A stretch of DNA of 30,322 nucleotides, from positions 1-30,322 of the forward strand of contig CAXXVK010000039.1 of the NCBI GenBank assembly GCA_963676915.2, given 5' to 3'. Below are positions 119 to 23,421 of this stretch, one piece after another. Every line of letters begins with the position of its first letter. Within the stretch, counting starts at the first letter, position 1. Below the pieces are notes generated by a model. The model worked only from the letters and a program-made list of their open reading frames with translations. It was not told the origin of the DNA and made no database searches. A program made the translations under genes and the position numbers. This DNA comes from Myxococcota bacterium (GTDB lineage: Bacteria > Myxococcota_A > SURF-8 > G963663525).

Positions 119-2418
119 GCGGCGTTTTCCTTGTTTTTACGGGAACGTAGGATCAGCGGAAGGATGACCGGCAGCAGGAAGAGGTCGGCGATCAGCGCCG
201 TGGAAATCGCTCCGACGGAGAGCAGGCCGAACGAGACGTTGCCTTGCACGTTGGAGGTGAAAATCGGCACCGAAAAACCACTGATAAGCACGATGGAGGT
301 GTAAATCATCGCTTTTCCCGTGCCGTGAATGGCACGATGCAGAACTTCTTCTTCGGGACGCCCTTGCAGGTGTTCGGAGAGGTAACGGGTGATGAAGTGC
401 ACGGTATCGTCCACCGCGATACCGAACGCAATGGAAAACGTGATCGCCGAACTGGGCTTGAGATTGATTCCCAACGCTCCGATCATGCCGAGAATGATGG
501 CCAATGGCAGAATATTGGGCAACAGAGAGATCAAGCCGACTCCCAACGAACGGAACTGAATCACCAAAAGTATGGTAATTACGGCAAAAGCGAGCAAAAA
601 CGTGTAAAAAATCTCATCCACCACAAGGGTGTTGATCATGTGAGCGACGGGATTCATGCCGGTCAAGGTAACCTTCAGATCGTCGGGGCTGTTCTTTTCG
701 ATCCACTTTTGGATGGTTCCGTAGATTTCATAGGCCCGAGGAGAATAGACATCTTCGATGCGTGACGAAACACGGGTTTTGTCCGACAGCGGGGAAACCA
801 GTCCTTCCATCGGATCTTTGCCGCTCATGGAGTACAGCAACATGTATTGAGCGATTTCCCGGCGGGTTTCGGGTATTCGATAATAGGCGGGATCGGAACC
901 ATTCATGGTTTGCGACAGTTCCTTGATCATATCGCTGGGGGCGTAGACTTTGTGAATTTCTGGAAACGTTTCGAGATAGTTTTTGGTTTTTTCTGCAAAA
1001 CGCATCACGGCAGGTTCTTTGATGCCGTCCTTTTCTCCGGTTTCTATCAGGATATCGAAGGGCATTACACCGCCCATCTTCTTTTCGAGATAGGTTTGTG
1101 TCCGAATGATGGGGTGGTCGGCGTCGAGGTCTTCGAGCAGGCGTTGTTTGCGCTCCACTTTCGTGGCGTAAAAGGTTCCGACGATCATCAGCGCCAGACA
1201 AAGGGAAAGAGAGAGCCAACGGTGTTTCGTCGTCATGATTTCGACGAAATTCAAAAAAGATAGGGAGCTTCCTTTGAAATAGCGATTTAATCTTTTGTAG
1301 GAAGGACGAGGCATCAGGGACAACACGGCGGGAAACAGCGTGATCGTGATCAGGTAAGCGCTCATAACGCCAATGGCGGTGAAAAGACCGAATTCGCGCA
1401 AAATACCGATGTCGGTTGTCATCAATACGCAAAATCCGACCGCTGTGGTGAAACTTGTGATGAAGCAGGCCACTCCAAGATGTTCGGTCGTTTTCAAAAT
1501 GGCGTCGTAGCGAGTTCTTCCCCGCAACAGTTCCTCGTAAAACCGGGTGTGATAATGGACGGAATTCGCCACGCCGGTGATCATTACGACCACGGGCATC
1601 AGGGTACTCATCAGGCTGATTTTGACATCGGCCATCGCCATCGTTCCGACCGAAGCCAGCATGGCCAAAAGGACGAGAACCATCGACAGTGCCACGCCTG
1701 CCCAATGGCGGAAGGTGAACAGCAGAATAATCAACGTAACGAGCGCCGCCATGGAGGTCATGGTTGCGGTGTCGTGCGTCATGATTTCGGCATAGGCGCT
1801 ACGGGAATGCGGAACCCCGCCGAAGGTGATTTGAAGGCCGGTATCTTTTTCCAACTGGTCCACAAGGGCGTGCATATCCTTCAAGATCGTCGCCCGACCA
1901 TCCGAAGTGTTCAAGTCCGGTTCGATTTTGACAATGAATAAAACCGCCTTGCCATCCTGAGAAATGTACGAACCGTTGTAAAGTTCGCTTTCCATCAGGT
2001 AGCGCTTTTTATTCTCGAAATCTTCCTTGTTTTCAGGGATTTCCTCGAACAGATCGTCAATGTAGAGTGTGTCGTTTTCCCACCGGGGCCGTGAGGCATT
2101 GATCAGGCTGTCCACCTCGACGATGCCCGAAACTTCCTCTGCGGCTTCTTGGAACGTTTTCAGGCGAGACATCTGCTTCTCGGTGAAAACGTCGTCACCC
2201 TCCAAGGCTATCAGCAGAGATGTGTCGTCGTATCCGAAATCCTCGATGACCTCGAAATACTTAATGACATCGGGATGTTCCGGCGGAAAAAACTGTTTGA
2301 AACTGTATTTGAAACCGATTTGGTTGGCGAAAAACAACAGAACGGCTGTTACCGCCAGGTACAGCACAATGACGGGGATTCGAAGTCGTATCAGCCACTC
2401 GGCCAGCTTAATGAACAA
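115..2418 (-). CDS. MMPL/RND-superfamily membrane transporter (putative lipid exporter)
   Basis: Two repeats of 1 TM + large periplasmic loop + 5 TM; GVANSVHY and GIAVDDTVHF transmembrane motifs typical of MMPL/RND. The ORF track starts at 2553, but the in-frame TTG at 2418 (MFIKLAEWLIRLR...) follows a purine-rich GAAAGAGAG and gives a typical MMPL N-terminus. Start uncertain. Confidence 0.9.
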   Translation of the reverse strand: MFIKLAEWLIRLRIPVIVLYLAVTAVLLFFANQIGFKYSFKQFFPPEHPDVIKYFEVIEDFGYDDTSLLIALEGDDVFTEKQMSRLKTFQEAAEEVSGIVEVDSLINASRPRWENDTLYIDDLFEEIPENKEDFENKKRYLMESELYNGSYISQDGKAVLFIVKIEPDLNTSDGRATILKDMHALVDQLEKDTGLQITFGGVPHSRSAYAEIMTHDTATMTSMAALVTLIILLFTFRHWAGVALSMVLVLLAMLASVGTMAMADVKISLMSTLMPVVVMITGVANSVHYHTRFYEELLRGRTRYDAILKTTEHLGVACFITSFTTAVGFCVLMTTDIGILREFGLFTAIGVMSAYLITITLFPAVLSLMPRPSYKRLNRYFKGSSLSFLNFVEIMTTKHRWLSLSLCLALMIVGTFYATKVERKQRLLEDLDADHPIIRTQTYLEKKMGGVMPFDILIETGEKDGIKEPAVMRFAEKTKNYLETFPEIHKVYAPSDMIKELSQTMNGSDPAYYRIPETRREIAQYMLLYSMSGKDPMEGLVSPLSDKTRVSSRIEDVYSPRAYEIYGTIQKWIEKNSPDDLKVTLTGMNPVAHMINTLVVDEIFYTFLLAFAVITILLVIQFRSLGVGLISLLPNILPLAIILGMIGALGINLKPSSAITFSIAFGIAVDDTVHFITRYLSEHLQGRPEEEVLHRAIHGTGKAMIYTSIVLISGFSVPIFTSNVQGNVSFGLLSVGAISTALIADLFLLPVILPLILRSRKNKENAA

Positions 2419-2815
2419 CGGTTGCTCTCTTTCCCGGTTTTTATATTCGAAAATTCGGACCGGACCGCTTGCCTGTCCGAACGCCCTTTGTAGCAGAAGT
2501 ACGGCGAGATACAAAATTTTGATGGAAAACAGCGGTTGCGTTCTCTTTTTCAAGCGGATTCGAGTCAGCTCGTCGTTGTTTTCGAGGTGCTTAAAATGTT
2601 GCCTCCAAATGGATTTGATTTTTTTTGTGGAAACTGTGATTTGTCCAGTGTGATCAAGTGGTTAATGTTTGTTTTTTCCTCATAGGCATACGGAGTTCTT
2701 TTTTGATTCATGTTTTTGAATGAATACAGGGTGATTTCTCTTGAATCAGGTTCCTGAAAAGATATACTTTTAGATAGTACCAATTCACAATCTTTGCTGG
2801 GGAATGGAGACTTGT

Positions 2816-7612: not shown

Positions 7613-8368
7613 TCAGTCAGCGCGTTCCTCTGTAGAAATCGGAGAGCCAAACACTTCCCGAGGATAGCCCATTCGTTGCAAGGGGAAAGCAAGGTCTTCC
7701 GGTATGGGAGCGACCAGCCGTAGGTCGTTTCCCGTTTGGGGATGGGACACCGTGAGTCCCCAGGCATGCAGTGCGAGTCGTTGCAGACCGTATCGCGCGC
7801 GCATGTCCCGGTTGATATCTCCTTTTCCGTAATTCGCATCGCCGATGAGCGGATGGTTCAGGCTTTTCATGTGTCGTCGAACCTGGTGAAGGCGGCCACT
7901 GAAGGGACGGACTTCTACAAGTGACGTTTCACGGGGAAGGGTCGGCAGGGTCGCCAGACGGCGAAACTCGGTGGATGCATCCACGAAATCCCCTGTTTTT
8001 CCGTTTTTTCTCAAGGGTTTATCGATGCGCCCTCTCTCTGGTGCAACACCTCGAACGAGCGCAAGATAACGTTTTTCAACACGATGTTGCACGAATTGGT
8101 CCGACATCTGGTGGGCGATGTCGGATTCCAGTGCGAAAAGAAGCACTCCCGAGGTGGCACGGTCCAACCGATGAAGAGGGTAGACTTTGCGAACCCCTAG
8201 AAAATCGCGGACATGCTGAACCAGCACGTCTTCAGTGTCATCCCATCCTCGATGCACAGAGAGTCCCGAGGGTTTCGAGACGGCCAAAAGCGCGTCATCT
8301 CGATACAAGATGTGCAAACGTGGTTCCGTTTCGGTGTCGTTGGGATGGGATTCGTCGGATCGGTTCAA
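7613..8368 (-). CDS. RluA-family pseudouridine synthase, TruC-like
   Basis: KPSGLSVH, catalytic HRLDRATSG, KRYLALVRG, GRLHQVRRH, HPLIGD..YG and LHAW motifs. The likely start is TTG at 8368, overlapping the GMC stop (TTGA); the ORF-track extension to 8605 lies inside the GMC gene. Confidence 0.9.
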   Translation of the reverse strand: MNRSDESHPNDTETEPRLHILYRDDALLAVSKPSGLSVHRGWDDTEDVLVQHVRDFLGVRKVYPLHRLDRATSGVLLFALESDIAHQMSDQFVQHRVEKRYLALVRGVAPERGRIDKPLRKNGKTGDFVDASTEFRRLATLPTLPRETSLVEVRPFSGRLHQVRRHMKSLNHPLIGDANYGKGDINRDMRARYGLQRLALHAWGLTVSHPQTGNDLRLVAPIPEDLAFPLQRMGYPREVFGSPISTEERAD

Positions 8369-9690
8369 GTGGGTACGGGTTCCTTTCGCTCTCGTTGAAG
8401 CAGGTGATCCGCCAGGCGGCGTCCCAGGGAAATCAGGGTCAGTACCAACGGACGGTCCAGGGCTTTGGGTAGCACGGATGCATCGGACACGTAAAGGTTT
8501 TCGATTCTCGTTTGCAGGTCGGTGTCCACAATATCCCCGATGCGGGCCGTTGCCCCCGGATGCGCTCCGCGTACCGGACCGATCATGATGCTGTCCGGGC
8601 GACATCCGGCTTCGATGAGGATTTCCCGGCTGATCGCGGCTCCGCGATTGAGTCGAAAGCGCTCTTTTTCTCCCATCGGTTTCGTGATGCGACCGTCCAG
8701 CGAAATCGAGCCGTTGCGGCTGTCGCCGATTTTGACCATGAGGCTGATCTGTTTTCGATACGAGAAAAACTGGAGCAGTTTCGACGGGTTGTGCCTAAGA
8801 GCCATTAACAGCCACATTCCCCAGGGATCGATCAGGTCTGAAAGCAGGATGCCTTCTTCCAGGAATTCGTAAGTGCCGATCGACATCGGCGGACTCAGCG
8901 GTGTTCCCTCGAAACGGGAAACTCCCGAGACAAACACCAGCGGATCGAGAAACATTCCCCGCCCGGCTTCGTGAATGCCGGATTTTTGCAGAATGCAGGG
9001 GGTTCCCAGTCCACCGGCGGCGAGCACTACGCAGTCCGCTTCGATGTCCAAAAGTCCCACAGGCGTAGAGGCAAGTACTCCGGTAGCCTGGCCATCCTGA
9101 ATACTGACGTGGAGAACGTCCGTTCGGGTCATGAATTCCCCGCCCGCCGCTTTCATGTCGTCGATATAGGCGCGGGCGCTCCATTTCGCGCCGTAAGGAC
9201 AACCCAACATGCAGGTACCGCCGCACCGCTTGCGGCACTTGGAAGGATCGATGAATTTCCGCAGCTTTTCGAAGTGATATCCCAAGGTGTCGGCGGCTTC
9301 CATCAAGCGCATGGCGGATGTGCCGATCACGTCGTTGGGAAGTGGCTCCAGGTGAAGTTCTTCGATGATATCTTTGACATACGGGGAAAGGTCGATGCCG
9401 TACTCGGTTTTAAACCATTCCGGCGGTTCGGTGGCCGCACCGCAATACATGATGGTAGAGCCGCCCGCCGTCAAGGCTCGTACGACGTTCAAGCCTTCTT
9501 CGGTGAAGTTCACTCCCATTTTGTCGGCAATCATCAGCCCGGTCAGGTGGTTTCCCAGCCATTCATGTCGGCGCCCTTTTTCAACGAGCAGCACTTTTTT
9601 CCCGGCTCGGGCCATTTCTCTCGCGACGGTCGCCCCGCCCGGACCGGAACCGACGACAACGACATCCGCTTTGCGTTTTAGAGTGTGCAT
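8365..9690 (-). CDS. GMC-family FAD-dependent oxidoreductase
   Basis: Rossmann motif VVVGSGPGG, GGSTIM, Cys cluster CRKRCGGTCMLGCP, LAAGGLGTP, active-site AHPGAT, and NLYVSDASVLP. Confidence 0.85.
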   Translation of the reverse strand: MHTLKRKADVVVVGSGPGGATVAREMARAGKKVLLVEKGRRHEWLGNHLTGLMIADKMGVNFTEEGLNVVRALTAGGSTIMYCGAATEPPEWFKTEYGIDLSPYVKDIIEELHLEPLPNDVIGTSAMRLMEAADTLGYHFEKLRKFIDPSKCRKRCGGTCMLGCPYGAKWSARAYIDDMKAAGGEFMTRTDVLHVSIQDGQATGVLASTPVGLLDIEADCVVLAAGGLGTPCILQKSGIHEAGRGMFLDPLVFVSGVSRFEGTPLSPPMSIGTYEFLEEGILLSDLIDPWGMWLLMALRHNPSKLLQFFSYRKQISLMVKIGDSRNGSISLDGRITKPMGEKERFRLNRGAAISREILIEAGCRPDSIMIGPVRGAHPGATARIGDIVDTDLQTRIENLYVSDASVLPKALDRPLVLTLISLGRRLADHLLQRERKEPVPT

Positions 9691-10445
9691 CGTTTTTCCT
9701 CCTTTGTCAGTCGGTTCTCTAGATTTCGGGCAATCTTTTCAACGGCTTGTACAGCCGGCGAGGATGCCGGCAAATCCCACAACGATCGGCTTTGGCGGTC
9801 GAAATCGGCCAGAATATCGTCTGGTGGAACATGGCCCAAAACGTCGTAACGGTCGGGAATCGCAATGTTTTCTAAAGCATGGACGCGATTGACAACGACG
9901 AGGACGTTATCGCATCCCACCATTTCGGCAATCAGATCCAAGGTGTTCAGGCTGCGGCCCGAACCATCGATAAGTACAAGATACTTTGTCACGTTTCGTG
10001 TGACTTGCCGGTTGATTTGTTCCACACCCGCTTCGGCATCGATCAGGACAAGGGAAAACGACCGGGACAAAGCGTCGATAGCTTCTCTCAGCAGGGCATG
10101 TGCCGGACAATAACAGCCTTTTTCAAGCGTTCTTCCCATGGCCAGCAGTGCATAGCCGTCCCTTTCTTCCAGGGATTCCAACAGTCGGTAGTCCAATTCG
10201 TGCTCGATGGCGTCGCGAGCGGCTTCGTCCTGCCTGCGGGCCAGTTGGATCATGCGAGAACGGATTTCGGCTAAAGTATGTTCCGTGCGTTCTCCTATGG
10301 CTGCGAGCAGTCCACCTGCCGGATCGGCGTCGATCAGACAGAACGGCTCCGGGCGACGGTGCAATAAAGCTCGGGAAAGCAGCGCACAAAACGCGGTTTT
10401 TCCTACGCCGCCCTTGCCGCATACGGCGAGAATGGGGCGAGTCAT
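9678..10445 (-). CDS. CooC/AcsF-type (MinD/SIMIBI) nickel-insertion ATPase
   Basis: Deviant Walker A GKGGVGKT, IDADP, the CXC metal motif GCYC, and switch-II DAEAGVEQ, all hallmarks of the CooC family. Confidence 0.85.
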   Translation of the reverse strand: MTRPILAVCGKGGVGKTAFCALLSRALLHRRPEPFCLIDADPAGGLLAAIGERTEHTLAEIRSRMIQLARRQDEAARDAIEHELDYRLLESLEERDGYALLAMGRTLEKGCYCPAHALLREAIDALSRSFSLVLIDAEAGVEQINRQVTRNVTKYLVLIDGSGRSLNTLDLIAEMVGCDNVLVVVNRVHALENIAIPDRYDVLGHVPPDDILADFDRQSRSLWDLPASSPAVQAVEKIARNLENRLTKEEKRCTL

Positions 10446-11104
10446 TTCGGAGGACTCCAGGTGTTTCGACTCGTTTTATCCTCTTTGGGAGTGGCGTCTT
10501 CCAGTCCTTGCGAAAGACTGGCCAAGACCTCGAAAAGGCGAAGGTTTTTGAATAACTTGTTGCGAATCCATCCCAGGGCGAAACCTAGCCAGTAGGCCAG
10601 GGCGTGAAGAATGGCCTGGAAGAATTTTTCGAACTCGGAACGAGGGTCGTGTTTTTGAATGGCGTTCGGCATGGAGGTTGCCTCCTGGTCTTGCGAGGAT
10701 CGGGGATCTTGAAATCCGATCGCCGCCAGATGATCTCGATACAATACGGTTGTGAAATCGAACAGTGGAATCAACCGTGCGAAATCACTGGGACTCCCTT
10801 TCAATAACATTTCCCGGCGTCCGAAACAAAGTCCCGGCTTGATTTCTCCCAGAAAAATTCGATGCATGGTTTCCGAATCGATCTTGATCGTTGCCCGGCC
10901 GTCGTCGTCGTGGACGCCTGTTCGGACTTGCATGGGGCGCTGGCCGAGATCGAGCAGGAGGTTCCAGCTTGTTGCGCCATGAAACCGAAACAAGGTCGGG
11001 CAGTCGGATTCGGATGTAAATTCCCGAAGCACGGTTTCCGCGTGCGGGAGTTTTTCGAAAAAACTCAATAAAGCATCGTCGTACGTCGGAGAGGGAGGAC
11101 TCAT
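10442..11104 (-). CDS. SCP2 (sterol-carrier)-like domain protein with amphipathic C-terminal extension
   Basis: N-terminal ~130 aa follows the SCP2 pattern (ATIKIDSETMHRIFLGEIKPGLCFGRREMLLKGS); C-terminal hydrophobic helix FFQAILHALAYWLGFALGWI. ATGA overlaps at both ends. Confidence 0.65.
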   Translation of the reverse strand: MSPPSPTYDDALLSFFEKLPHAETVLREFTSESDCPTLFRFHGATSWNLLLDLGQRPMQVRTGVHDDDGRATIKIDSETMHRIFLGEIKPGLCFGRREMLLKGSPSDFARLIPLFDFTTVLYRDHLAAIGFQDPRSSQDQEATSMPNAIQKHDPRSEFEKFFQAILHALAYWLGFALGWIRNKLFKNLRLFEVLASLSQGLEDATPKEDKTSRNTWSPPK

Positions 11105-11907
11105 GACGAAAATCTCCTGCGTTTGATTCGAATGTTTCGTAAATTGTCGCAGACCGGCTTTTCATCGCAAATGTCGCAATTAGACTCCTGGCAGGTCGCT
11201 TCGCCATCTTTACCAAGAGAAAGCTTTCGGTGTCTGCCCTGCAAAATTTCCGCTTCGGTCGCCAACACTGCAAGGGTGTTCACATCGTCCTCGCCGGAAG
11301 TGACGAAGACGCTTTCACAGGCTGCAACGGCTGGAAAATCCAAGGTAAAGGCGGCATTTAAAGCCGAGCCGAAGATGGAAAGATTCATGCCGTTTTGTTG
11401 TCCCTCACGACTGAATCGCAGCCACACGCGACCCGGTACGCTACGCACCATCACACCGGGAAGACGATGGACGAGGTACAGCGTTTGTTCCAGTTCATAG
11501 GGCTGTACGGACATTTCCGGTCGAAGCTGCAAAAGGACGATCTGCACGAACGGATGATAGGGGCGTTCGGGAAGGGCGTCGATATCCGGACCGATTCGAT
11601 GGACCGTTTGAGGACGAACGATGCCTTCGCGAGTCGTGGTGAGCAAAATGGAACGGGAAACCGTACGAGGATGTCCCAGTTCGGCAGCAAGGTTTCCCGC
11701 GAGAATCATTTCGGGGGTGCCTTGTCCACGATGGCAGAAATGAAAACGTTCCGTGAGTTCTCCCGGTGTCATACATGGAGATACGGTAGTGGTTCGTTCG
11801 GTATTTTCCTTTAGAAATTGGCGCAACCCTGCAATTTGTCGCTCCATTTCAGGAAAGTTCGCGCCATCCTTGGCCTGGTTGATATTGGATTGTTGGGGTT
11901 CCAACAC
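11101..11907 (-). CDS. Truncated acetyl-CoA synthase (AcsB/CdhC)-like protein: middle domain plus a Cys motif
   Basis: ELG..., IGPDID, WLRFS, FPAV and C-terminal CxxC(x5)C line up in order with the ACS middle domain. GTG start with AGGAG RBS at 11913-11917. Confidence 0.7.
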   Translation of the reverse strand: MLEPQQSNINQAKDGANFPEMERQIAGLRQFLKENTERTTTVSPCMTPGELTERFHFCHRGQGTPEMILAGNLAAELGHPRTVSRSILLTTTREGIVRPQTVHRIGPDIDALPERPYHPFVQIVLLQLRPEMSVQPYELEQTLYLVHRLPGVMVRSVPGRVWLRFSREGQQNGMNLSIFGSALNAAFTLDFPAVAACESVFVTSGEDDVNTLAVLATEAEILQGRHRKLSLGKDGEATCQESNCDICDEKPVCDNLRNIRIKRRRFSS

Positions 11908-12107
11908 GAAAACTCCTGTTTTCTACCCCGGATTATTCATGAGAATCGTTACGAGACGCAGAAAACCGAAGAGGTTTCACGAAGTTGGAGCGATTTTCAC
12001 CCGCAGTCATACCAAACGGTCTGTCGAGGATGAAAATCGGGAAACGAGTGAAAGATCGAGAGTTTTCAAGTCGGAGTAGATTCTTCATGCATCATCCGGG
12101 GTAAACG

Positions 12108-12890
12108 TTACTGCGAAAAATCCGCCGCAATGACGGCCGCGCCGAGCGCACCGATCAATTGCGGATCTGTTTTTGGAAATGGCTTCATATGAATTGAGAG
12201 TCGTTGCTCTATCGCTTCTCGTACTCCTTTGTTTTTGGCAACACCGCCGGTCATCGCTACATGCTCGACGATCCCCAGCCGCTTGCCCAGCGAGGCCACG
12301 CGGCCCGCCATGGACAGCAAAAGCCCCTTCACGATTCGAGGCAGCGCTACGCCGTCGTTGATCAGGTTGATGACTTCGCTTTCGGCGAAAACGCTGCACA
12401 TGCTGGTAATCGTGCAGGGTTCTCCGTTTTCGAAGTAATAGCGTTCCATCTCTTCGATGGGGATTTCCATCGAACGCGACATGGCTTCCAGAAAGCGCCC
12501 GGTGCCTGCCGCGCATTTGTCGTTCATCACGAAATCCAGCAGGTTGCCTTCACTGTCGATGGCGATGGCCTTCGTATCCTGGCCACCGATATCGATTACG
12601 GTGCGAACCTCCGGCAAAAGGAAGTGCGCACCTCGGCCATGGCAGGTGATTTCGGAAACGTTTTTATCGGCGAATTCCACCTGCGTTCTTCCGTAGCCTG
12701 TACCCACTACGAAAGCCACGTCCTCGCGTGCGATTCCGGCATCGGCCATGGCTTGTTTGAAAATCGTGTCCGCCGTGCGCTTGGGATTGGTCGAACTGGG
12801 ACCGATGACTTGAGCCAAGACCTCGTTTCCCTTGAGAATCACGACTTTCGAAGCCGTGGAGCCGATGTCCACTCCGGCTGTAACGCGCAT
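12108..12890 (-). CDS. ATP-dependent acyl-CoA dehydratase activator (HgdC/HadI/BcrAD, ASKHA family)
   Basis: GVDIGSTASK, GTGYGR, EITCHGRG, DIGGQDTK, MNDKCAAGTG and SMCSVFAESE motifs with two Fe-S Cys. Start ATG 12890 after GAGG (the ORF-track start at 12992 overlaps the upstream gene). Confidence 0.93.
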   Translation of the reverse strand: MRVTAGVDIGSTASKVVILKGNEVLAQVIGPSSTNPKRTADTIFKQAMADAGIAREDVAFVVGTGYGRTQVEFADKNVSEITCHGRGAHFLLPEVRTVIDIGGQDTKAIAIDSEGNLLDFVMNDKCAAGTGRFLEAMSRSMEIPIEEMERYYFENGEPCTITSMCSVFAESEVINLINDGVALPRIVKGLLLSMAGRVASLGKRLGIVEHVAMTGGVAKNKGVREAIEQRLSIHMKPFPKTDPQLIGALGAAVIAADFSQ

Positions 12891-12916
12891 ATTTTTCCTC
12901 GTTTCTACAGATCGCT

Positions 12917-14221
12917 TTACATGCTTCGTAATTTTCGAGGGTAAACGATTTCGTCTACGAAACGTTCCACCTGGAAGTAAATGTCTTCCCAAGACGTGAT
13001 TCGGGGGTCGAACATGTCGAATTCAAAGATCAACAGCGGAATATCCGCTTTACGCAGAGCTTCTTTGAACAGACCGATTCCGCCCCAGGCATGTTTGCAG
13101 GTGACGTGTCCTGCGAAGATGCAACAGTCGGCGTTCCAGCCTTCGACCATGTTCATGAAATCCCGGATATACAGATCGATATCTCCCCGGAACTGGCGGG
13201 ACATCGGTTGGCAACGAACGAGTTTGTTGGCCAGACCTTTGAGCATGGTGGTTTCGTTGCGGGTGTCGATCAAGCCTTCCTGGGCGTAGTACCCGAAAAC
13301 ATCCACCGGGATCGTCAGTCCCAATTCACGCTCGAACCAGTCGTAAATCTGCATATCCGTCCAGACGGCATCCTGATACCAGACCGCCCGTACGCGCTCT
13401 TCGAAAAAGCGCTCGTTTCGCTGGCTGCGTTCCCGTGCTTCTCGTAAAAGATTTTCGGCGATATCCACGCCTTCGGCGGAGCCGGTGAACAGAATCTGCA
13501 AAATCAGTGTAAAAGCGACCACTTTGCTCGATTGGGTCAAGGGGACGAGTTTGCGCCAGTCCAGCCATTCCCATAGGGCTTCGGTCATGCGGTTGGAGTT
13601 CTCGCAGACTTCCCGCAGTCGGTCGATATCCATGCTGTGACCGAGAACTTCCTCCATAAATTCAACAAGTTCCTTAAGCTGGGCTGCTACGTGCTCGACG
13701 GCTTCATTGTCGTCGTGATAAGGAACGTCGATGGAGAAAAACGGAGCGCCGGACAACTCGGCGATAACCTGGGAGTTCATGACCTGAGCGTCGCAAGGTG
13801 TGTTGATCCCGATGGCCAGGGCAGGCGCAGGGTAGCATCCTTTGTGCATCGCTCCTGCGGAGATTTTATCGGCGGAGCAACAATCCGTCGGAATTCCCGA
13901 TGCATGAGCCGTATCGATGAAATCAAGGCTCATACGGTGATTCCCCACCAGAGAATGTACCGTCCCCAGCATTTCCACCGGGATTGGGCAGACATCCCCC
14001 ATGGCGTAGACCAGTTCCGAACTGAAACCGAGATTGTACCAGATGAACGGACTGCGGCGGTCCATGTGATTCAGCAGACGATCGAAGTAAACCGTCAGAT
14101 TTCGTAATAGACTATTGAGACCCAACGAGTCCGGGTCGCCCTCGAAGAACGAGCGAACCAACGGCAGGGTTTCGAAAATTTCCTTCCATTGCGGGATGTT
14201 GGAAAAAGCGGTCGAATTCAT
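12917..14221 (-). CDS. 2-hydroxyacyl-CoA dehydratase family subunit (HgdA/HadB/BcrB-like)
   Basis: Cys ligands in DCCSADK, NTPCD and HVTCKH; FFSIDVP and C-terminal IPLLIFEFDMFDPR pattern of the HGD-D family. Confidence 0.85.
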   Translation of the reverse strand: MNSTAFSNIPQWKEIFETLPLVRSFFEGDPDSLGLNSLLRNLTVYFDRLLNHMDRRSPFIWYNLGFSSELVYAMGDVCPIPVEMLGTVHSLVGNHRMSLDFIDTAHASGIPTDCCSADKISAGAMHKGCYPAPALAIGINTPCDAQVMNSQVIAELSGAPFFSIDVPYHDDNEAVEHVAAQLKELVEFMEEVLGHSMDIDRLREVCENSNRMTEALWEWLDWRKLVPLTQSSKVVAFTLILQILFTGSAEGVDIAENLLREARERSQRNERFFEERVRAVWYQDAVWTDMQIYDWFERELGLTIPVDVFGYYAQEGLIDTRNETTMLKGLANKLVRCQPMSRQFRGDIDLYIRDFMNMVEGWNADCCIFAGHVTCKHAWGGIGLFKEALRKADIPLLIFEFDMFDPRITSWEDIYFQVERFVDEIVYPRKLRSM

Positions 14222-15384
14222 GGAACAACTCCCGCTGCGCGTTTGGCGCGAGTGATTTCGATTTTTTCGACGAAAGCCTGTACGCGAGTTTTAACCTGAC
14301 CGGTTGGTACGATGCCGTATTCTCGGCTGAGTGACAACACGGGAAAGACGTTTTCATTGCGGTTGCGCTGTTGCAGATTATGCAGGTCCGCTCCCCAGGG
14401 ATCGCAGAACAACAATCGCTGGAACACGACGCCGTCGGCTCGTGCGCGCCGGGCGGTGTCTTTCAATGTTTCCCATCGTTCGGGAAAATTGCCGATCATT
14501 CGTGCGCAGGAGAGGCGATAAAAGTAGGTTTTTGCCAATGCTTCCAACGGGTTGTCGCAGTGTTCGTCGATAGAAGGCAGCACGGAACGCGAACCGAAGC
14601 ACAGCTGGTCGGCCACGACCCTCGCATCTTGGCTTTCGATGGCGGCGATGAAGTCCGGTTCGTCCAATTCGGCTCCGATCAACAGCAGCCGTGCTCGGGG
14701 AATCGGTAGTTCGTCTCGTGTCTTCAATTCTTCAAAAAGCCTGTCGGCGTATTCGATAAAAATTTCCGGTGGAAGGGCGTGGGCGGCGAGATGAACCACG
14801 GCGGCTTCGGTTCCACTGAGTCGGGGACGTTCTTCCAGGCGCAGTTCGTCGAGTTGTCGCAGACGTTTTCGGACACGGTTGACACGGGCGATGGCTTCTC
14901 GAAGTTTTTCCGGTGTAATTTTCTGTCCGAAATGCATTTCCAGCGCGTTTTTCAACTTGGCCAACTCGTTGAAATAATACGAGAAAAGGCTTTGTCTGAC
15001 CGTGCGTGGCACCGAAAGAAAATGCTGGAATGGAACGTCGGTTTTTTTCTGAAACAAGTCGTAGGTGCGTCGAACATGGTCGCAGGTGTTGGAGCCGATA
15101 ATGCCATCCAGAAAATCGAATTCACCTTCCAGGACAAGGCTCATTGCGTGTCGTACGTACGTGCAGACATGGCTGCTCATGTAGGCGTCACCGGTGGAGG
15201 AATCCTCCGAACCTGAACCACGCATCCGTAATGGGACTGCACCTGCCGCAAGGATAAGTTCCTGTGGAACGTATTGGCAGAAAAATCCGACAATTGGTTT
15301 TCCTTGCGATTTGAACTCGTCGATATGGTGGTTCGTATGCGTACGAATCAATCCACGCAACGTGCGGTGCACGTCATCAGACAT
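14218..15384 (-). CDS. 2-hydroxyacyl-CoA dehydratase family subunit (HgdB/HadC/BcrC-like)
   Basis: GKPIVGFFCQYVPQELILAAG, HVCTYV, NTCDHVRR, DQLCFGSR, FCDPW and QVKTRVQAFVE motifs. Confidence 0.9.
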   Translation of the reverse strand: MSDDVHRTLRGLIRTHTNHHIDEFKSQGKPIVGFFCQYVPQELILAAGAVPLRMRGSGSEDSSTGDAYMSSHVCTYVRHAMSLVLEGEFDFLDGIIGSNTCDHVRRTYDLFQKKTDVPFQHFLSVPRTVRQSLFSYYFNELAKLKNALEMHFGQKITPEKLREAIARVNRVRKRLRQLDELRLEERPRLSGTEAAVVHLAAHALPPEIFIEYADRLFEELKTRDELPIPRARLLLIGAELDEPDFIAAIESQDARVVADQLCFGSRSVLPSIDEHCDNPLEALAKTYFYRLSCARMIGNFPERWETLKDTARRARADGVVFQRLLFCDPWGADLHNLQQRNRNENVFPVLSLSREYGIVPTGQVKTRVQAFVEKIEITRAKRAAGVVP

Positions 15385-15483
15385 GGTAAGTCACCCCGGA
15401 GTTGCATAAACAAGAAGATAAAAGTATGGTTTGAAGCATTCTATTCGGTCCTTGGGTTCAATACAACTTCTTTTGTCGAAAAC

Positions 15484-16665
15484 ATGGAGATTTCTGTGCA
15501 ACGAAAGACTCGAAGCGGTGATTTCGGTTTCTGGGGGCTTGATAAGAGTAACCTTCGATATGGCATCGTTTGTTTGTGGCTGGGGTGGCTGCTGGCCCTT
15601 TCGGCGTTTTTCTTTGCCTGTTCCGACGAAATCTCCTCGAACGACTTCGTGACGGATGAAGACTTAGAGGCAGATGGCAACGAAGAATCGCTGGAGAATT
15701 TCGAGGAATACGCTTGGCTCGTGTCTGCCCCGGATTATCAAAACGAGTTTTGCTGCCCGGATGCGGAAAACCCGGAAGCCGCAGAGGAAAGGGTGTTTAT
15801 TGAATGTCGAATGGAAGGCGAAAGTTTCATCACGGACCCGGCTGAAGCAAAAGACGAAATCGTCGTCGTCGCGTACAATCTCGAACGTGGACGTCATGCG
15901 GATGAAATCATCGAACAATTGTCGCAAAACGGCTCTGTTCCGTACCCGGATATTTTATTGGTGAGTGAAGCCGATCGTAATTGCAATCGGAGTTCGAACC
16001 GCTACATCACGCGATATCTGGCCGAAGCTTTGGGTATGAACTACGTATATGCGGTCGAATTCGTTGAGTTACCCGACTCGTTGGGAACGGGAATCGAACG
16101 CGCCGACTGCGAGCATGGAAACGGCATACTTTCCCGGTATCCTTTGGGAAATGTTCGGCAGATTCGACATGCCACGCAACGAAACTGGTCGGAATCAACC
16201 GACGAACCCCGGTTGGGTGGACGAATTGCCGTAGCGGCGGATGTGCAGATCGGGCAAAGGATCGTCCATGTGTATTCGGTGCATTTCGAATCCGATGCCG
16301 GGGAGCAGCACCGAGGGCCACAGGCCGTCGAAACGGCGGAGGATGCCCTTACCCAGGGTGGGTTGAGTCTGATTGGAGGAGATTTCAACGCCGGTATGGT
16401 GATGTTGGATCAACAACTTGGCGTCCAACAAGACCAAACCTTGAAAGCTTTTCTCGATCGGGGATTTTTCGACGCACATGCCTCGATTCCGTACGAGGAC
16501 CGAACGACGACAAGCCACGATGTTTCGTTGATACTTGACTATATCGTGGCCAGTCGAAACGTGGTTGTGAACGCTGGCATTGGCGACGCGCAGGAATACG
16601 GCTCGTTGTCGGATCACCTGCCCGTGTGGGTACGTATCGACCTTTCAGGTGTCGATGCCAAGTAG
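15484..16665 (+). CDS. Endonuclease/exonuclease/phosphatase (EEP) family lipoprotein
   Basis: AYN, SEAD, HGNGILSRYP, VHF, GGDFN, LDYI and SDHLPV motifs; lipobox-like SAFFFA-C. Start at ATG 15484 or GTG 15496 (GGAG upstream); the ORF-track start at 15274 overlaps the divergent gene. Confidence 0.85.
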   Translation: MEISVQRKTRSGDFGFWGLDKSNLRYGIVCLWLGWLLALSAFFFACSDEISSNDFVTDEDLEADGNEESLENFEEYAWLVSAPDYQNEFCCPDAENPEAAEERVFIECRMEGESFITDPAEAKDEIVVVAYNLERGRHADEIIEQLSQNGSVPYPDILLVSEADRNCNRSSNRYITRYLAEALGMNYVYAVEFVELPDSLGTGIERADCEHGNGILSRYPLGNVRQIRHATQRNWSESTDEPRLGGRIAVAADVQIGQRIVHVYSVHFESDAGEQHRGPQAVETAEDALTQGGLSLIGGDFNAGMVMLDQQLGVQQDQTLKAFLDRGFFDAHASIPYEDRTTTSHDVSLILDYIVASRNVVVNAGIGDAQEYGSLSDHLPVWVRIDLSGVDAK

Positions 16666-16683: not shown

Positions 16684-18420
16684 TTACCGGCGAATCACTT
16701 GACCGTGCAATTTTTCGTCGTGGAAGCCGTTCGGGTCGAGCACGACCTGGCCGTTGATGGCGACGTATTCGATGCCGTCAGGGTACTGATCCGGGGCTTC
16801 CGTCGTTGAGTTCGAACGGATGGTCTTCGGATCGAACAGCACGAGATCGGCGTGGTATCCTTTTTCCACTTTGCCACGGTTTTTGATCTGCAATTGTTTC
16901 GCAGGCAATGACGTGCATTTCCGAATCGCTTCCCGCAGCGGGATGCCTTTGCCATCGAGCGAATAATTGCGCAGGAATTTTGGAAAACAATCGTAATAAA
17001 TGTGCGAAGGTCGTCCATAACCGATCAAAATGGTATCGGTGACGATGGAAACATTGGGATCGACCAGCGTTCCCTTCAGGCTCAACTCGATAAATGCATC
17101 TCCGGGATACGTGGCTGTTTCGAAAATAAGCACCCGGCCATCTTCATCCAACAGCAAGTCGCATACGGCATCGAAGGGATGCTTGCCTTGCTCTTTGCCG
17201 ATTTCGACGAAATTCTTTCCGATAAGGTGCTGGTTTTTCTCGGAAACGACGCTCATTACGAAAACGCTGCTCCAGCCCATGACCTTGAAGAAGTTCATCG
17301 ACCACGAGTTGCCTTCTCGGTGGGGCCATTTCGAATTCCCGGTTTCGATGTCGTGCAGGATCTTTTTTCGGGTCTGCGGGTCACGCAGGCGTTCGGTGAT
17401 TTCTTCGCGTGTGCCGTCGAGCACCCAGGGTGGGAAAAAGGCGATCAAGTGCGTGAAACCAGCGCTAGTAGGCATGGCATCCATACCGATCGGGTAGCCG
17501 TCTTCAATCCGTTTGCCGGTGAGGTCTAGAATAGGGCGCAAGCCGGTATCCAGGGGAAGATCGATTGGCATACGGTTGAAGAAGTCGGACCCAAGGGCGA
17601 CGATGCCATCCATGACACGATTGATCGGCCATGGGAAATTCGGCACCCAGAACATGTGGGACATCTGCACGGGGATTTCGGCTTCACGGCAGACGGCGAA
17701 AACTTCATCCACCGCTTTACCCAACGTATCGGAATTATAGCTGCGAAGATGCGATGTGAACACGCCGCCGTATTGGTGAATCGTATGACCCAGCTCGATA
17801 AGTTCTCGAGTATCCGACTGACTTCCGGGAAAATACTGCAGACCGGTGCTCATGCCGATCGCACCTTCTTCGAAGCAGCGTTCCAACTGGGTTTTCATGT
17901 GTTTCAGGTCGCGCCAGCTGGCCAGTTCTCGGCTGCTGCCCATGGCGTTCATGCGAAGAATTCCATGAGGCGCCAGTACGGCGAAATTGAGCAGGCTGCC
18001 CTGTTTTTCGACCGTGTCCAGCATTTCACCGAAACCGGACCAATGGATGATCGGTTCCGGGTCTTCACCGATGAACATATCGTAGAAAGCCATGGCGAAA
18101 TCACGGTTTTCTTCGCCGATGGGTGCGAATGATACACCACAATTGCCTCCGACAAACGTGGTGATACCCTGACGCACCAAAGGTTCCATCCGTTTCGAGT
18201 GGTCTTCCCGGACGATGGTGAAATCGGCGTGGGAATGCACATCGATAAATCCGGGGCATAACGCCAGTCCACTTGCATCGATTCTGCGGTTTGCTTCGGC
18301 GTCGGTCAAACGACCGATTTCAGTGATTTTATCGCCTTGAACACCTACATCAGCGCGGTAGGCACGTCGCCCCGTTCCATCGTAGATCTTCGCTTGTTCC
18401 ACAATCAGATCGAACTGCAT
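16684..18420 (-). CDS. N-acyl-D-amino-acid deacylase family amidohydrolase
   Basis: PGFIDVHSHAD, QGITTFVGGNCG (Cys ligand), GMSTGLQY, SHLR, SHM and RG.V..G..ADLVLFDP motifs. Confidence 0.9.
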   Translation of the reverse strand: MQFDLIVEQAKIYDGTGRRAYRADVGVQGDKITEIGRLTDAEANRRIDASGLALCPGFIDVHSHADFTIVREDHSKRMEPLVRQGITTFVGGNCGVSFAPIGEENRDFAMAFYDMFIGEDPEPIIHWSGFGEMLDTVEKQGSLLNFAVLAPHGILRMNAMGSSRELASWRDLKHMKTQLERCFEEGAIGMSTGLQYFPGSQSDTRELIELGHTIHQYGGVFTSHLRSYNSDTLGKAVDEVFAVCREAEIPVQMSHMFWVPNFPWPINRVMDGIVALGSDFFNRMPIDLPLDTGLRPILDLTGKRIEDGYPIGMDAMPTSAGFTHLIAFFPPWVLDGTREEITERLRDPQTRKKILHDIETGNSKWPHREGNSWSMNFFKVMGWSSVFVMSVVSEKNQHLIGKNFVEIGKEQGKHPFDAVCDLLLDEDGRVLIFETATYPGDAFIELSLKGTLVDPNVSIVTDTILIGYGRPSHIYYDCFPKFLRNYSLDGKGIPLREAIRKCTSLPAKQLQIKNRGKVEKGYHADLVLFDPKTIRSNSTTEAPDQYPDGIEYVAINGQVVLDPNGFHDEKLHGQVIRR

Positions 18421-19800: not shown

Positions 19801-22800
19801 ATGAAGTTACCGAAGGTTGAGGCCAGAGTGGAATCGATGGACGGCAATGCTGCCGCCGCGACCAGCGCTCACGCCATGAGTGAGGTCATTGCTATTTATC
19901 CCATCACTCCTTCTTCGCCGATGGCGGAAGCCGCCGATGAGTTTTCGGCGAAAAATCGGGAAAACATTTTCGGACAAGTCCCGAGCGTCTATGAGATGCA
20001 GAGTGAAGGCGGTGCCGTTGCGGCAATTCATGGTGCAATGTCCGCTGGAACGTTGACCACGACGTTCACGGCCAGCCAGGGATTGTTGCTGATGATCCCG
20101 AGCATGTACAAAATCGCCGGTGAAATGACACCGACGCTGTTCAATGTCACGGCCCGGACAATCTCGTCCCATGCGCTGTCGATTTTCGGCGATCATTCCG
20201 ATGTTATGGCCTGCCGTCAGACCGGTTTTTCGATGATCGCTTCCAGCGACCAGCAAGAAATCATGGACCAGGCCGCTATCGGCATGGCGGCAGCGATCAA
20301 TTCGTCCATGCCGTTCTTGCATTTCTTTGACGGATTCCGTTCCTCGCATGAGATTTCCAAGGTCGAAACGCTTTCTTACGACACGATGCGCGCTCTTATC
20401 GACATGGAAGCACTTGCCCGTTTCCGTTCCCGTGCGCTCAATCCCGATCGTCCGACCTTGAAAGGAACGGCGATGAACCCGGATATCTGGTTCCAGGGTG
20501 CGGAAGCCCGCAATCCCGTGCACGATGCCATTCCGGGACATCTGCTGAAAGTTTACGAAGCTTTCGAAAAACTTACGGGTCGGAGTTATCGCCCCTACGA
20601 ATATTACGGTCATCCCGAAGCGGAAACCGTGCTGGTGATCATGGGTAGCGGTTCCAATGTGGCGCAGGAAACCGTCGAATTCCTCAATGATGCCCGTCAA
20701 ACAAAACTCGGATTGCTGAAAGTTCGTATGTATCGCCCGTTTGAGGCGAGTATGTTCATCGACGTGCTGCCCAAAACCGTCAAACAGGTTGCGGTACTCG
20801 ATCGTACCAAAGAACCTGGAAGTGTGGGCGAGCCGCTGTACCTCGACACTGTGGGAGCCTTCAGCGAGTCTCTGCGCGCCGGAAAAATCGACCACATGCC
20901 CGCGATCCTCGGCGGACGCTACGGGTTGTCCTCGAAAGACTTTACTCCGACGCAGATCAAGTCCGTGTTCGATCACATGGATTCGAACGATCCCGCCAAC
21001 TGGATTCAGGGATTTACGGTGGGTATCGAAGACGATCTGTCCGGGCGCTCGTTGCCGGTTCAGGAAGAAATCGATACCGAGAAGAGCAGTGTCAGCCGCT
21101 TGAAATTCTGGGGACTCGGTTCCGATGGTACGGTTGGAGCGAACAAGAACTCCATCAAGGTCATCGGTGACAATTCCGATAAATACGTACAGGCGCATTT
21201 CGTCTACGACTCGAAGAAAGCCGGCGGAACGACCGTCAGCCACCTGCGGTTCTCGGACGATCCGATCCTGTCGAACTATGAAATCAACAACCCCAACTTC
21301 ATCGCCATTCACAACCGGGAATTCCTGGGTAAATACGACCTGTTGGAAGGTCTGGTCGAAGGCGGAACGGTGTTGATCAATACCGATATTCCCAATGAAG
21401 AAGTCTTTGCTTCCTTCCCGGAACAAGATCAGCGCACGATGATCGAAAAGAAAGCGAAACTATACGCAATCGACGCGCACAAAGTCGTTCGCGAGTTGGG
21501 ATTGCCGGGACGCATCAACACCACGATGCAGGCGGCATTCTTCAAGATCGCCGATATTCTTCCCAAAGACGTGTACGTTCCCGCCGTCGAGGAACGAATT
21601 GCCAAAACCTTTGCCAAAAAAGGTCAGAAGGTTGTGGACATCAACCTGGCAGCATTCCGGCGCGGCTTGGATTCCTTCGTGGAAATCCCGGTGCCTGCCA
21701 CTCCTGTGATTTCCAGCGCTGCGATTCCCGAAATTCATGTGGCCGAAGGCGACGAGGCGATTTCCGGGACGATCAACAACATTATTATACCGATCATGCA
21801 GTTACAGGGTGACCGGATTCCGGTTTCGAAGGTTCCCGCCGACGGCGTGTTCCCGACCGGAACGACCAAGTACGAAAAACGCAGCATCGCAACCTACGTT
21901 CCCAAATGGGACCAGGATTTGTGCATTCAGTGCGGATATTGTGCTTTTGCATGTCCCCACGCCGCGATTCGTCTGAAAGTTTCCAAAGCGGACGAAATTC
22001 AGATGGATGGTTACGAGACCATTCAACTCAAAGGCAAGGGTGCCGCCGAAGACGATCGCTGGCGCGTCCAGGTTTATCCCGACGACTGCACCGGCTGTGG
22101 CGTATGCGCGGAAGTCTGCTTGGGTAAAAACAAGGAAACCGGCGTAAAATCTCTCACAATGGTTCCGAAAGGCGAAGTCCTCGCGGAACATCGTGCCACC
22201 CTTCAGGAATTCGAAAGACTGCCGGAAAGCCCCGCCCAGTTCGCCAACAAGGCGCTGGTCAAGGGTGTGCAGCTTGTAGATCCGCTGTTCGAGTTCTCCG
22301 GAGCCTGCGGCGGTTGCGGCGAGACGCCGTACGTGAAACTGGCGACGCAGCTTGTGGGTGACCGAATGATTCAGGCCAACGCCACCGGCTGTTCCTCGAT
22401 CTACGGCGGAACCGCTCCGACGGTGCCGTATACCCGCAATCCTCTGGGACGCGGACCGGCCTGGGCTTCGTCTCTGTTCGAAGATAACGCCGAGTTTGGC
22501 TTGGGTATCCGGCTAGGTGTCGAATACCTCCAGGAGACCGCCTGGAACCTGCGTGGGCAGCTTCTTGAAGATTCCGGTACTACCGCCGAGCTGCGGGAAG
22601 CGCTGGAAGCCATTGCTCCGTTGGAAGAGCAGGAGAAAAGCGACGACGTCTACAAGACCTCCAAAGCGGCGGCGGATCGTGTAACCAAACTGCTGGCCGG
22701 AGCTACGGACGGTGCAGGCGAGGAATTATCCAAGCTCGCAACCTACCTTACGGATGTCAAAGTGATGATCGTCGGTGGTGACGGTTGGGCCTACGACATC

Positions 22801-23421
22801 GGATACGGCGGACTGGATCACGTCATTGCCTCGGGCAAAAACGTCAATATCCTGGTGCTCGATACCGAAGTGTATTCCAACACCGGCGGACAGCGTTCGA
22901 AATCCACCTTCATCGGCGGTGTGGCGAAATTCGCGGCCAAGGGCAAGGAAAACCACAAGAAAGACCTTGGCATGATGGCCATGAACTACCGGGACGTGTA
23001 TGTGACCTCCATTGCGTTTGGTGCGAGCATGCAGCAGACCTTGAAGGGAATGCGCGAAGCGGTGGAATACCCCGGGACGTCGTTGATCATCGCCATGTCC
23101 ACTTGTATCGAGCACGGCGTGCCGATGGCCAAGGGACCGGAGTTGAGCAAGCTGGCTGTCGATACCGGATACTGGCTGCTGTATCGTTACGATCCGCGCC
23201 GTCTGGCCGAAGGCAAAAATCCGCTCCAACTCGATTCGAAAGAGCCGAAAAAGGATGTCGCCGAATTCCTCAACCGCGAGCGTCGCTTCAAACGGTTGCT
23301 GGACGAGCGTCCCGAGCGTGGTGAAACGCTGTTCAAAGAGGCGCAACGCTTCGTTTCCAATCGCTACGGTTATTACAAGAAACTTTCCGAAATGAGCTTC
23401 GAGGATTGGATTCTTCGCTAA
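19801..23421 (+). CDS. nifJ: Pyruvate:ferredoxin (flavodoxin) oxidoreductase, single-chain
   Basis: YPITPSS, EMQSEGGA, GLGSDGTVGANK, two ferredoxin motifs (CIQCGYCAFACP, CTGCGVCAEVC), GACGGCGE, NATGCSSIYGG and TPP motif GDGWAYDIG..GLDHV. Confidence 0.97.
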   Translation: MKLPKVEARVESMDGNAAAATSAHAMSEVIAIYPITPSSPMAEAADEFSAKNRENIFGQVPSVYEMQSEGGAVAAIHGAMSAGTLTTTFTASQGLLLMIPSMYKIAGEMTPTLFNVTARTISSHALSIFGDHSDVMACRQTGFSMIASSDQQEIMDQAAIGMAAAINSSMPFLHFFDGFRSSHEISKVETLSYDTMRALIDMEALARFRSRALNPDRPTLKGTAMNPDIWFQGAEARNPVHDAIPGHLLKVYEAFEKLTGRSYRPYEYYGHPEAETVLVIMGSGSNVAQETVEFLNDARQTKLGLLKVRMYRPFEASMFIDVLPKTVKQVAVLDRTKEPGSVGEPLYLDTVGAFSESLRAGKIDHMPAILGGRYGLSSKDFTPTQIKSVFDHMDSNDPANWIQGFTVGIEDDLSGRSLPVQEEIDTEKSSVSRLKFWGLGSDGTVGANKNSIKVIGDNSDKYVQAHFVYDSKKAGGTTVSHLRFSDDPILSNYEINNPNFIAIHNREFLGKYDLLEGLVEGGTVLINTDIPNEEVFASFPEQDQRTMIEKKAKLYAIDAHKVVRELGLPGRINTTMQAAFFKIADILPKDVYVPAVEERIAKTFAKKGQKVVDINLAAFRRGLDSFVEIPVPATPVISSAAIPEIHVAEGDEAISGTINNIIIPIMQLQGDRIPVSKVPADGVFPTGTTKYEKRSIATYVPKWDQDLCIQCGYCAFACPHAAIRLKVSKADEIQMDGYETIQLKGKGAAEDDRWRVQVYPDDCTGCGVCAEVCLGKNKETGVKSLTMVPKGEVLAEHRATLQEFERLPESPAQFANKALVKGVQLVDPLFEFSGACGGCGETPYVKLATQLVGDRMIQANATGCSSIYGGTAPTVPYTRNPLGRGPAWASSLFEDNAEFGLGIRLGVEYLQETAWNLRGQLLEDSGTTAELREALEAIAPLEEQEKSDDVYKTSKAAADRVTKLLAGATDGAGEELSKLATYLTDVKVMIVGGDGWAYDIGYGGLDHVIASGKNVNILVLDTEVYSNTGGQRSKSTFIGGVAKFAAKGKENHKKDLGMMAMNYRDVYVTSIAFGASMQQTLKGMREAVEYPGTSLIIAMSTCIEHGVPMAKGPELSKLAVDTGYWLLYRYDPRRLAEGKNPLQLDSKEPKKDVAEFLNRERRFKRLLDERPERGETLFKEAQRFVSNRYGYYKKLSEMSFEDWILR

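Follow-up and report, generated by a model that had tools for sequence, protein, structure and literature searches.

A 30,322-nucleotide stretch from a Myxococcota bacterium (assembly GCA_963676915.2, contig CAXXVK010000039.1, positions 1 to 30,322; below, the window) carries seven minus-strand genes at 8365..15384, five of which make up a real and apparently undescribed variant of the benzoyl-CoA reductase class I/2-hydroxyacyl-CoA dehydratase/double-cubane cluster protein (BCR I/HAD/DCCP) family, in which an alpha/beta enzyme and its activator are joined by a co-opted pair of proteins from the acetyl-CoA synthase (ACS) system. This pair consists of a lone ACS middle domain with a cysteine tail, here called mini-ACS, and a CooC-family ATPase. 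That the five genes form a genuine core module is close to certain. The initial annotation had placed all seven, including an SCP2-domain protein and a GMC flavoenzyme, in one candidate pathway built on a radical acyl-CoA dehydratase. The co-oriented run is as it described, with ATGA start/stop overlaps at 14218-14221, 11101-11104 and 10442-10445 and a 13-nucleotide overlap at 9678-9690, and its suspicion that Wood-Ljungdahl parts had been repurposed also stands, in that ACS-system parts have been co-opted into a conserved module. A literature search, with most subscription journals outside its coverage, found no description of the module, and passages of bioRxiv 2022.07.06.499078, PMC12289521 and PMC13370988 do not mention it. 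A stand-alone copy of the ACS middle domain has been mentioned as a 'partial domain', without a function (PMC4443539).

Distribution of the five-gene core

Gene neighbourhoods were compared for 82 mini-ACS loci (35, 13, 2 and 32 from four sets), or 72 once those with identical tails were merged. The activator lay within 9 kb in 60 loci, alpha and beta in 59 each, CooC in 53 and the SCP2 and GMC genes in 17 each, with all seven together in 6. The 41 loci with at least 5 kb on both flanks gave alpha and beta in 39 each, the activator in 38, CooC in 30, GMC in 12, SCP2 in 10 and all seven in 4. The association thus exceeds chance, and the combination is conserved as an alpha/beta/activator/CooC/mini-ACS core but not as the full set of seven that had been proposed as a unit. 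According to record titles, carriers belong to the Thermodesulfobacteriota, Myxococcales, Chloroflexota, Spirochaetes, Bacillota and Bacteroidota.

Among 301 genomes of the window's own phylum, mini-ACS occurs in 11, all of which also have the module beta clade. A beta profile scored at least 328 bits in 12 genomes, including those 11, and at most 241 bits in a further 91, none of which has mini-ACS, a separation to be read with 9 of the 12 top-scoring genomes having supplied part of the profile and with related genomes not being independent. In other samples, mini-ACS was present in 23 of 251 genomes around one genome (G308) and in 2 of 301 around another (G306), from a phylum rich in canonical ACS. 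In G220, which has module-type alpha and beta genes, mini-ACS and CooC were not found, and at both loci the contig breaks off where they would be expected. Some genomes hold several alpha/beta pairs per mini-ACS/CooC (five to two in G277), and in a number of loci (L013, L015, L017, L023, L025, L027, L029, L066, L246, L247 and L251) a single mini-ACS has two different alpha/beta(/activator) sets around or next to it, mostly with one CooC, which suggests that the helper pair is shared.

The module also occurs where canonical ACS was not detected: five module-bearing metagenome-assembled genomes (MAGs), whose completeness is not given, yielded no match to the ACS C-terminal (A-cluster) domain (0/5), with weak CdhC/CdhD matches only. 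In three of them no match to carbon monoxide dehydrogenase (CODH)/HCP was found.

The enzyme and its proposed helper pair

Pfam and NCBIfam scans of the 20 large open reading frames (ORFs) of the window returned, within the run, two HGD-D proteins, one BcrAD_BadFG activator, a weak CdhC match, a CbiA/ParA-type ATPase and a GMC flavoprotein; in agreement with the initial annotation, no CooS, corrinoid protein, methyltransferase or CoA-transferase was among the 20. The beta subunit (14218..15384, 388 aa, HGD-D) has BzdN as its best PDB match and DCCP as its second, and its residues C36, C74, C101, C262, C293 and C327 align with the BzdN double-cubane ligands (C36/73/100/263/293/327; PMC11971306). 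All six cysteines and R53 are invariant in 31/31 aligned beta relatives, and in a first locus set the six cysteines were complete in 30 of 31 neighbouring betas, the remaining one being cut by a contig end. Judging by these ligands, beta very probably carries an [8Fe-9S] double cubane. The alpha subunit, of catalytic type (12917..14221, 434 aa), is best matched by BzdO, and its predicted [4Fe-4S] ligands C115, C143 and C375 align with BzdO C95/128/380; C115 and C143 are kept in 27/27 aligned sequences and C375 in 21, with His in the other 6, while D144, M340 and H372 are also conserved. The activator (12108..12890 after correction of its start to 12890; 260 aa, with C126 and C165) is an ATP-dependent protein of the ASKHA 'archerase' type, matching PF01869 and TIGR00241 (258.7 bits, above the cut-off of 125.4). 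The window has no second activator gene; two adjacent ones occur in several relatives, as in BzdPQ.

The enzyme falls below every family cut-off. The best NCBIfam score of beta is 216 bits with NF040772 (DCCP) against a cut-off of 350, and for BzdN it reaches 132 against 453.8; alpha scores 57.9 against 448.6 for BzdO and the activator 204.2 against 380.2 for BzdQ, while HadB and HadC give 34.5 against 750 and 120.4 against 700, and the BcrB/C cut-offs are likewise not reached. In a FastTree phylogeny of 73 beta-type sequences, the 46 that adjoin mini-ACS fall into one clade (support 0.924), which also takes in 5 copies with no mini-ACS beside them (2 lie at contig edges, and a genome that carries two full modules contributes the other 3), and 22 other family members, E. 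coli YjiM among them, lie outside it. The initial annotation's description of HgdB/HgdA-like subunits with an HgdC-type activator holds at the level of the HGD-D and BcrAD_BadFG families but not as an Hgd-type identity, and the label of radical dehydratase is not supported, beta having six ligands for a double cubane as BzdN does, unlike HadC.

The closest known architecture is that of BzdNOPQ (PDB 8s02; PMC11971306), a heterodimer of a double-cubane beta and a three-cysteine [4Fe-4S] alpha with near-identical ligand positions and an ATP-driven activator. However, the window proteins score far under the BzdN, BzdO and BzdQ cut-offs, have one activator gene, do not keep His131, are not near bzd pathway genes and have mini-ACS and CooC in addition. 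DCCP/YjiM (PDB 6eno, 7yyl; NF040772; PMC7317905) provides the best-scoring hidden Markov model, and its six ligands align one to one, but the score stays under the cut-off, the seventh cysteine is not aligned, an alpha partner is present where DCCP is a homodimer, and YjiM lies outside the clade. With HgdCAB/HadIBC (PDB 3o3m) the enzyme shares the fold family, the alpha/beta pair and the single activator gene; it differs in its six beta ligands, where the HAD beta subunit holds one cluster only (PMC7317905; PMC11971306), in scores far under the cut-offs and in that no CoA-transferase was found. On sequence grounds, the pair is a BzdNO-like heterodimer in architecture without being a BzdNO member, forming its own uncharacterised clade, and a reductase appears somewhat more probable than a dehydratase.

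Mini-ACS (11101..11907, 268 aa) has a weak CdhC Pfam match (27.4 bits, cut-off 24), and its PDB sequence matches to solved ACS span residues 66-218 only, which correspond to the middle (A2) domain. The predicted structure (mean pLDDT 88.6, falling from 77 to 54 in the tail at 221-268) aligns with residues 316-495 of 3git over 177 positions (Z 19.3, rmsd 2.9 Å, Foldseek E 4e-12), the next unrelated row having a Z of 3.6. What had been described as a truncated AcsB-like protein is one domain (ACS ~316-495) with a new tail, and not a shortened enzyme. Like the A2 domain of AcsB/CdhC (PDB 3git, 9g7i), it keeps the adenine-stacking Trp and the next Arg, but it is without the N-terminal and A-cluster domains. 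By sequence alignment, W162 corresponds to W405 of Clostridium autoethanogenum ACS, the residue against which the acetyl-CoA adenine stacks, and two residues linked there to the transfer of the acetyl group, R383 and H386, are absent (bioRxiv 2024.08.05.606187); two phosphate-patch arginines of ACS (columns 69 and 81) are lost as well. The ACS A-cluster motif was found in 0/183 mini-ACS proteins, and PF19436 gave no match in the window protein. A function as a working ACS was rejected.

The tail (C239-x4-C244-x2-C247-x5-C253, encoded at 11149..11193) is a candidate for an Fe-S or Ni-Fe-S site. In a set of 183 family members between 225 and 320 aa long (from 206), the Cx2Cx5C motif and R164 are present in all, W162 in 178 and the first tail cysteine in 166. 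The family is uniform, at 240-270 aa with invariant residues, and 14 canonical ACS middle domains form a separate clade (support 1.0). It comprises 58 close proteins, and 624 representatives at E 0.001 with canonical ACS included; genomic context is known for a minority of 148 extra family proteins, ten distant members carry uninformative names, and a search of metagenomes with one distant member turned up no relative in 119 stretches. One subgroup has only three tail cysteines. In this subgroup, a 415-594-aa gene without a Pfam match precedes beta (L073:14423-15895, L074:14843-16318, L109:14187-15971, L246:4161-5408).

The CooC-family ATPase (9678..10445, 255 aa) carries GKGGVGK and C111-x-C113, and its best PDB match is 3kje (CooC1), bearing out the annotation as a CooC/AcsF ATPase with an intact CXC motif; C111 and C113 are present in 42/42 aligned module CooCs. 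CooC has a role in nickel delivery (PMC6006190), and AcsF is listed as a putative Ni-insertase for ACS (PMC7079680). The genome has its own canonical Wood-Ljungdahl cluster on contig C43 (CdhD, Prismane and CdhC matches), with a CooC1-type CooC, and the window CooC is a third paralogue, apart from that cluster. A further, AcsF-type CooC on contig C74 adjoins a gene that we take to be acsV. In the trees, module CooCs group with CooCs beside RACo/acsD genes (support 0.972 and 0.93), presumably the AcsF type as judged by that position, and apart from the CooC1 type; mean identity is 43% within the module group, 31% to the AcsF type and 26% to the CooC1 type. The trees likewise separate module CooCs from the canonical CooCs of the genome, against the possibility, raised at the outset, that the ATPase groups with those of canonical CODH/ACS. 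With CooC1 (PDB 3kje) and the AcsF type it shares the deviant Walker A and the CXC motif, but module CooCs form their own group, have Q143/V148 for H/T and are linked to mini-ACS and the reductase, not to acs genes. A role as helper of the canonical ACS was rejected, since that system has its own CooC1-type (C43) and AcsF-type (C74) genes. The canonical CODH gene at C43:231759-233901 lies in two frames, split near 232680, as an assembly error or a pseudogene; the same-genus copy is a single 713-aa ORF.

AcsF reportedly forms an ATP-dependent complex with apo-ACS. A PDB sequence search with a CooC profile returned no solved AcsF-ACS complex. A complex of two CooC copies with mini-ACS was modelled from the proteins' own alignments and scored 0.70 (0.68, 0.70, 0.72), while the highest-scoring of 3 controls gave 0.00; in calibration 116/157 solved and 2/215 mismatched pairs attained the mark, counts that apply only roughly to a three-chain, own-alignment job unlike the calibration set. 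The runs share at least 65% of contacts, with a partner pLDDT of 81. The best contact places CooC Y86 on mini-ACS W162, and the predicted interface residues are conserved on both sides (P80, R155 and W162 of mini-ACS; D85, Y86, L92 and E94 of CooC). L92 and E94 of this CooC helix are shared with AcsF-type CooCs (7/8 and 8/8) and not with the CooC1 type. The model supports a CooC dimer sitting on the former CoA-binding face of mini-ACS, and it makes a physical CooC-mini-ACS pair likely.

Proposed mechanism and competing explanations

The reading that we favour, and hold to be about evenly balanced between right and wrong, is a five-gene system in which a BCR I/HAD/DCCP-family reductase works with a co-opted mini-ACS/CooC helper pair. 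By family resemblance, the activator would hydrolyse ATP and drive low-potential electrons into alpha/beta, where the predicted double cubane of beta would store them and the three-ligand [4Fe-4S] site of alpha would reduce a CoA thioester, most likely non-benzoyl and hydrophobic given the architecture and the neighbouring genes. Mini-ACS and CooC would have been taken together from the Wood-Ljungdahl system as an ACS-domain/ACS-maturase pair, the CooC dimer on the former CoA face using ATP to load or remodel a metal site on the cysteine tail, which is located where the A-cluster domain would start. Nickel would be the most likely metal of mini-ACS, although we put it slightly short of an even chance. 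The loaded mini-ACS would then act as a shared redox or maturation factor for the reductase, in trans too, and SCP2 and GMC would be lineage-specific additions for substrate handling. A more specific version makes mini-ACS a new nickel protein: the AcsF-like ATPase would insert nickel into the Fe-S cluster of the tail, creating a pared-down Ni-Fe-S centre resembling the A-cluster, which would gate or reactivate a double-cubane reductase for hydrophobic CoA esters. We regard this version as rather doubtful; the three-cysteine subgroup would leave an open site for nickel.

Several observations, beside the limits of the beta profile and of the model calibration given above, weigh against the five-gene system as described. 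Expression of bzdNO alone has given BzdNO in E. coli (PMC11971306), which means that a dedicated maturase is not required for a double cubane. Nickel helpers are rare: a CooT profile built here matched in 2/88 module-related loci, L069 (just after cooC) and L067, and one transporter-like motif was found, in an HxxxxDH gene without a Pfam match that follows cooC in L067; these occurrences support nickel weakly. CooC is non-adjacent in 11/41 well-flanked loci and is adjacent in 16/32 loci of the set with the least bias (drawn from 22 genomes, without the known L022 match); of the genomes in which a mini-ACS locus has no CooC beside it, five were tested, and all five encode a module-group CooC at another site. 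Two of the 41 well-flanked loci (L033, L254) are without alpha, beta and activator, and in the mini-ACS subgroup L253-L255 the gene is transcribed after an acyl-CoA dehydrogenase with no reductase or CooC nearby. The monophyly of module CooCs is weakly supported (0.223 and 0.782). Finally, alpha has no His at 145 or 146 in place of BzdO His131, and E83, near the expected Glu65, is present in only 18/27, so that the chemistry cannot be read off alpha.

Some of these points fit a system without nickel, in which mini-ACS would be an Fe-S electron carrier or CoA-ester sensor and CooC an ATP-driven switch or Fe-S/Zn chaperone competing with CoA for the W162 face. The near-invariance of the CoA-face residues W162 and R164 speaks for it, as does the rarity of nickel helpers; a stoichiometric reductase requires a donor, and mini-ACS is tied closer to alpha/beta (39/41) than to CooC (30/41). 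The Cx2Cx5C motif is similar to common [4Fe-4S] motifs. However, the CXC motif is intact in every module CooC aligned, these CooCs come from the ACS-maturase branch, the two phosphate-patch arginines are lost, and some loci have ferredoxin/flavodoxin genes of their own, and we consider this explanation unlikely. The seven-gene pathway of the initial annotation, an HgdCAB-type radical dehydratase acting on a lipid- or steroid-like 2-hydroxyacyl-CoA handed over by SCP2, with a GMC oxidase step, appears improbable. Both the window and a same-genus relative do have all seven genes in one run, the single activator gene resembles that of dehydratases, GMC recurs in several phyla, and the neighbours include acyl-CoA dehydrogenases, ligases, thiolases, SDRs, a second SCP2 family, a START domain and a linalool-dehydratase-family gene; yet the complete set is seldom found together, beta has six ligands against the single HAD cluster, HadB and HadC score far under their cut-offs, no CoA-transferase was found in the window, and several relatives have two activator genes, as BzdPQ. 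That CooC serves a canonical CODH/ACS, with mini-ACS a decaying or misannotated fragment and the neighbourhood accidental, is very improbable indeed. A full acs cluster does exist on C43 and many carriers also have ACS, but the canonical system has CooC genes of its own, mini-ACS is a uniform family with invariant residues that stands apart from the canonical middle domains, and the module-bearing MAGs described above, of unstated completeness, gave no match to the A-cluster domain (five) or to CODH/HCP (three).

Accessory genes, setting and implications

The SCP2-fold protein (10442..11104) has no Pfam match (PF02036 not matched), but the initial assignment is borne out by its predicted structure, in which residues ~5-125 adopt the SCP2 fold (Foldseek E 9.7e-7; Z 11.3, rmsd 2.8 Å, 114 aligned), followed by a helical C-terminal part. 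A word search with this accessory protein gave 2 matches, and one with P0206 only itself. An internal Met145 (position 10672) lies behind a GGAG/GAGG ribosome-binding-like site in the window and in 16/16 of the distinct homologues listed, and minus-strand positions 10442-10672 possibly encode a nested helical protein of 57-88 aa or reflect a recent fusion. The recurrent but optional GMC-family flavoprotein (8365..9690, 441 aa) matches PF00732 and PF05199, so its family assignment stands but the label 'oxidase' does not: it contains C152-x3-C156-x3-C160-x3-C164, a motif present in 16/18 neighbouring GMCs, and the PDB entry that it matches best is a 'glucose dehydrogenase' (6a2u_B). Glucose dehydrogenase of this type holds an Fe-S cluster. 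From its sequence, the protein is more likely a dehydrogenase than an O2-using oxidase.

Across loci, the module is accompanied by acyl-CoA dehydrogenases, AMP ligases, thiolases, SDRs, enoyl-CoA hydratase and an OYE-type flavin reductase, and further by TetR regulators, amidases, a second SCP2 family, a START domain and, in some loci, ferredoxin/flavodoxin genes. These neighbours fit the catabolism of a hydrophobic acyl-CoA, with no compound named, and point towards the substrate class first suggested. In the Bacteroidota loci L037-L040 a linalool dehydratase/isomerase-family gene precedes the module, and His replaces the third alpha cysteine; the substrate of this branch is perhaps a terpenoid.

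The 200-nt gap between the activator and mini-ACS genes contains a dispersed palindromic, MITE-like (miniature inverted-repeat transposable element) repeat of 180 bp (11924..12103) that lies outside the module. It is hairpin-forming, with terminal inverted repeats and TA ends, and has 63 matches of at least 150 bp on 32 contigs of the same genome. The same junction measures ~25 nt in the same-genus genome, so the gene run was probably contiguous. A scan for promoters and terminators found none above shuffles (3 against 4.9 and 14 against 13.8). Just 3' of gmc lies a TruC/RluA-family pseudouridine synthase gene (7613-8605, minus strand; true start probably ~8314), which was rejected as a module member, a different gene following gmc in the same-genus genome. 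An MMPL/HAE3-family RND transporter with a sterol-sensing domain (115-2553, minus strand) is found 6 kb downstream of the operon. Upstream are an exo/endo-phosphatase lipoprotein (15274-16665), an amidohydrolase (16684-18420) and a pyruvate:ferredoxin oxidoreductase (19801-23421); the latter two accompany the module in the same-genus genome as well, probably through plain synteny.

Besides BzdNO, the module adds a second clade of double-cubane heterodimers, spread across several anaerobic phyla, and the reuse of an ACS domain with its maturase outside CO2 fixation offers a lead towards a new Ni or Fe-S site. Some sources label mini-ACS genes as 'CO dehydrogenase/acetyl-CoA synthase beta subunit', which may produce false Wood-Ljungdahl calls in MAGs. 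A cultured carrier is available in Desulfatibacillum alkenivorans DSM 16219 (L022). Through the predicted interface, the docking of AcsF-type proteins on ACS becomes testable with two small soluble proteins; if CooC docking does insert nickel, recognition of apo-ACS by AcsF would be explained by the same mode, with these two proteins as a minimal model of that step.

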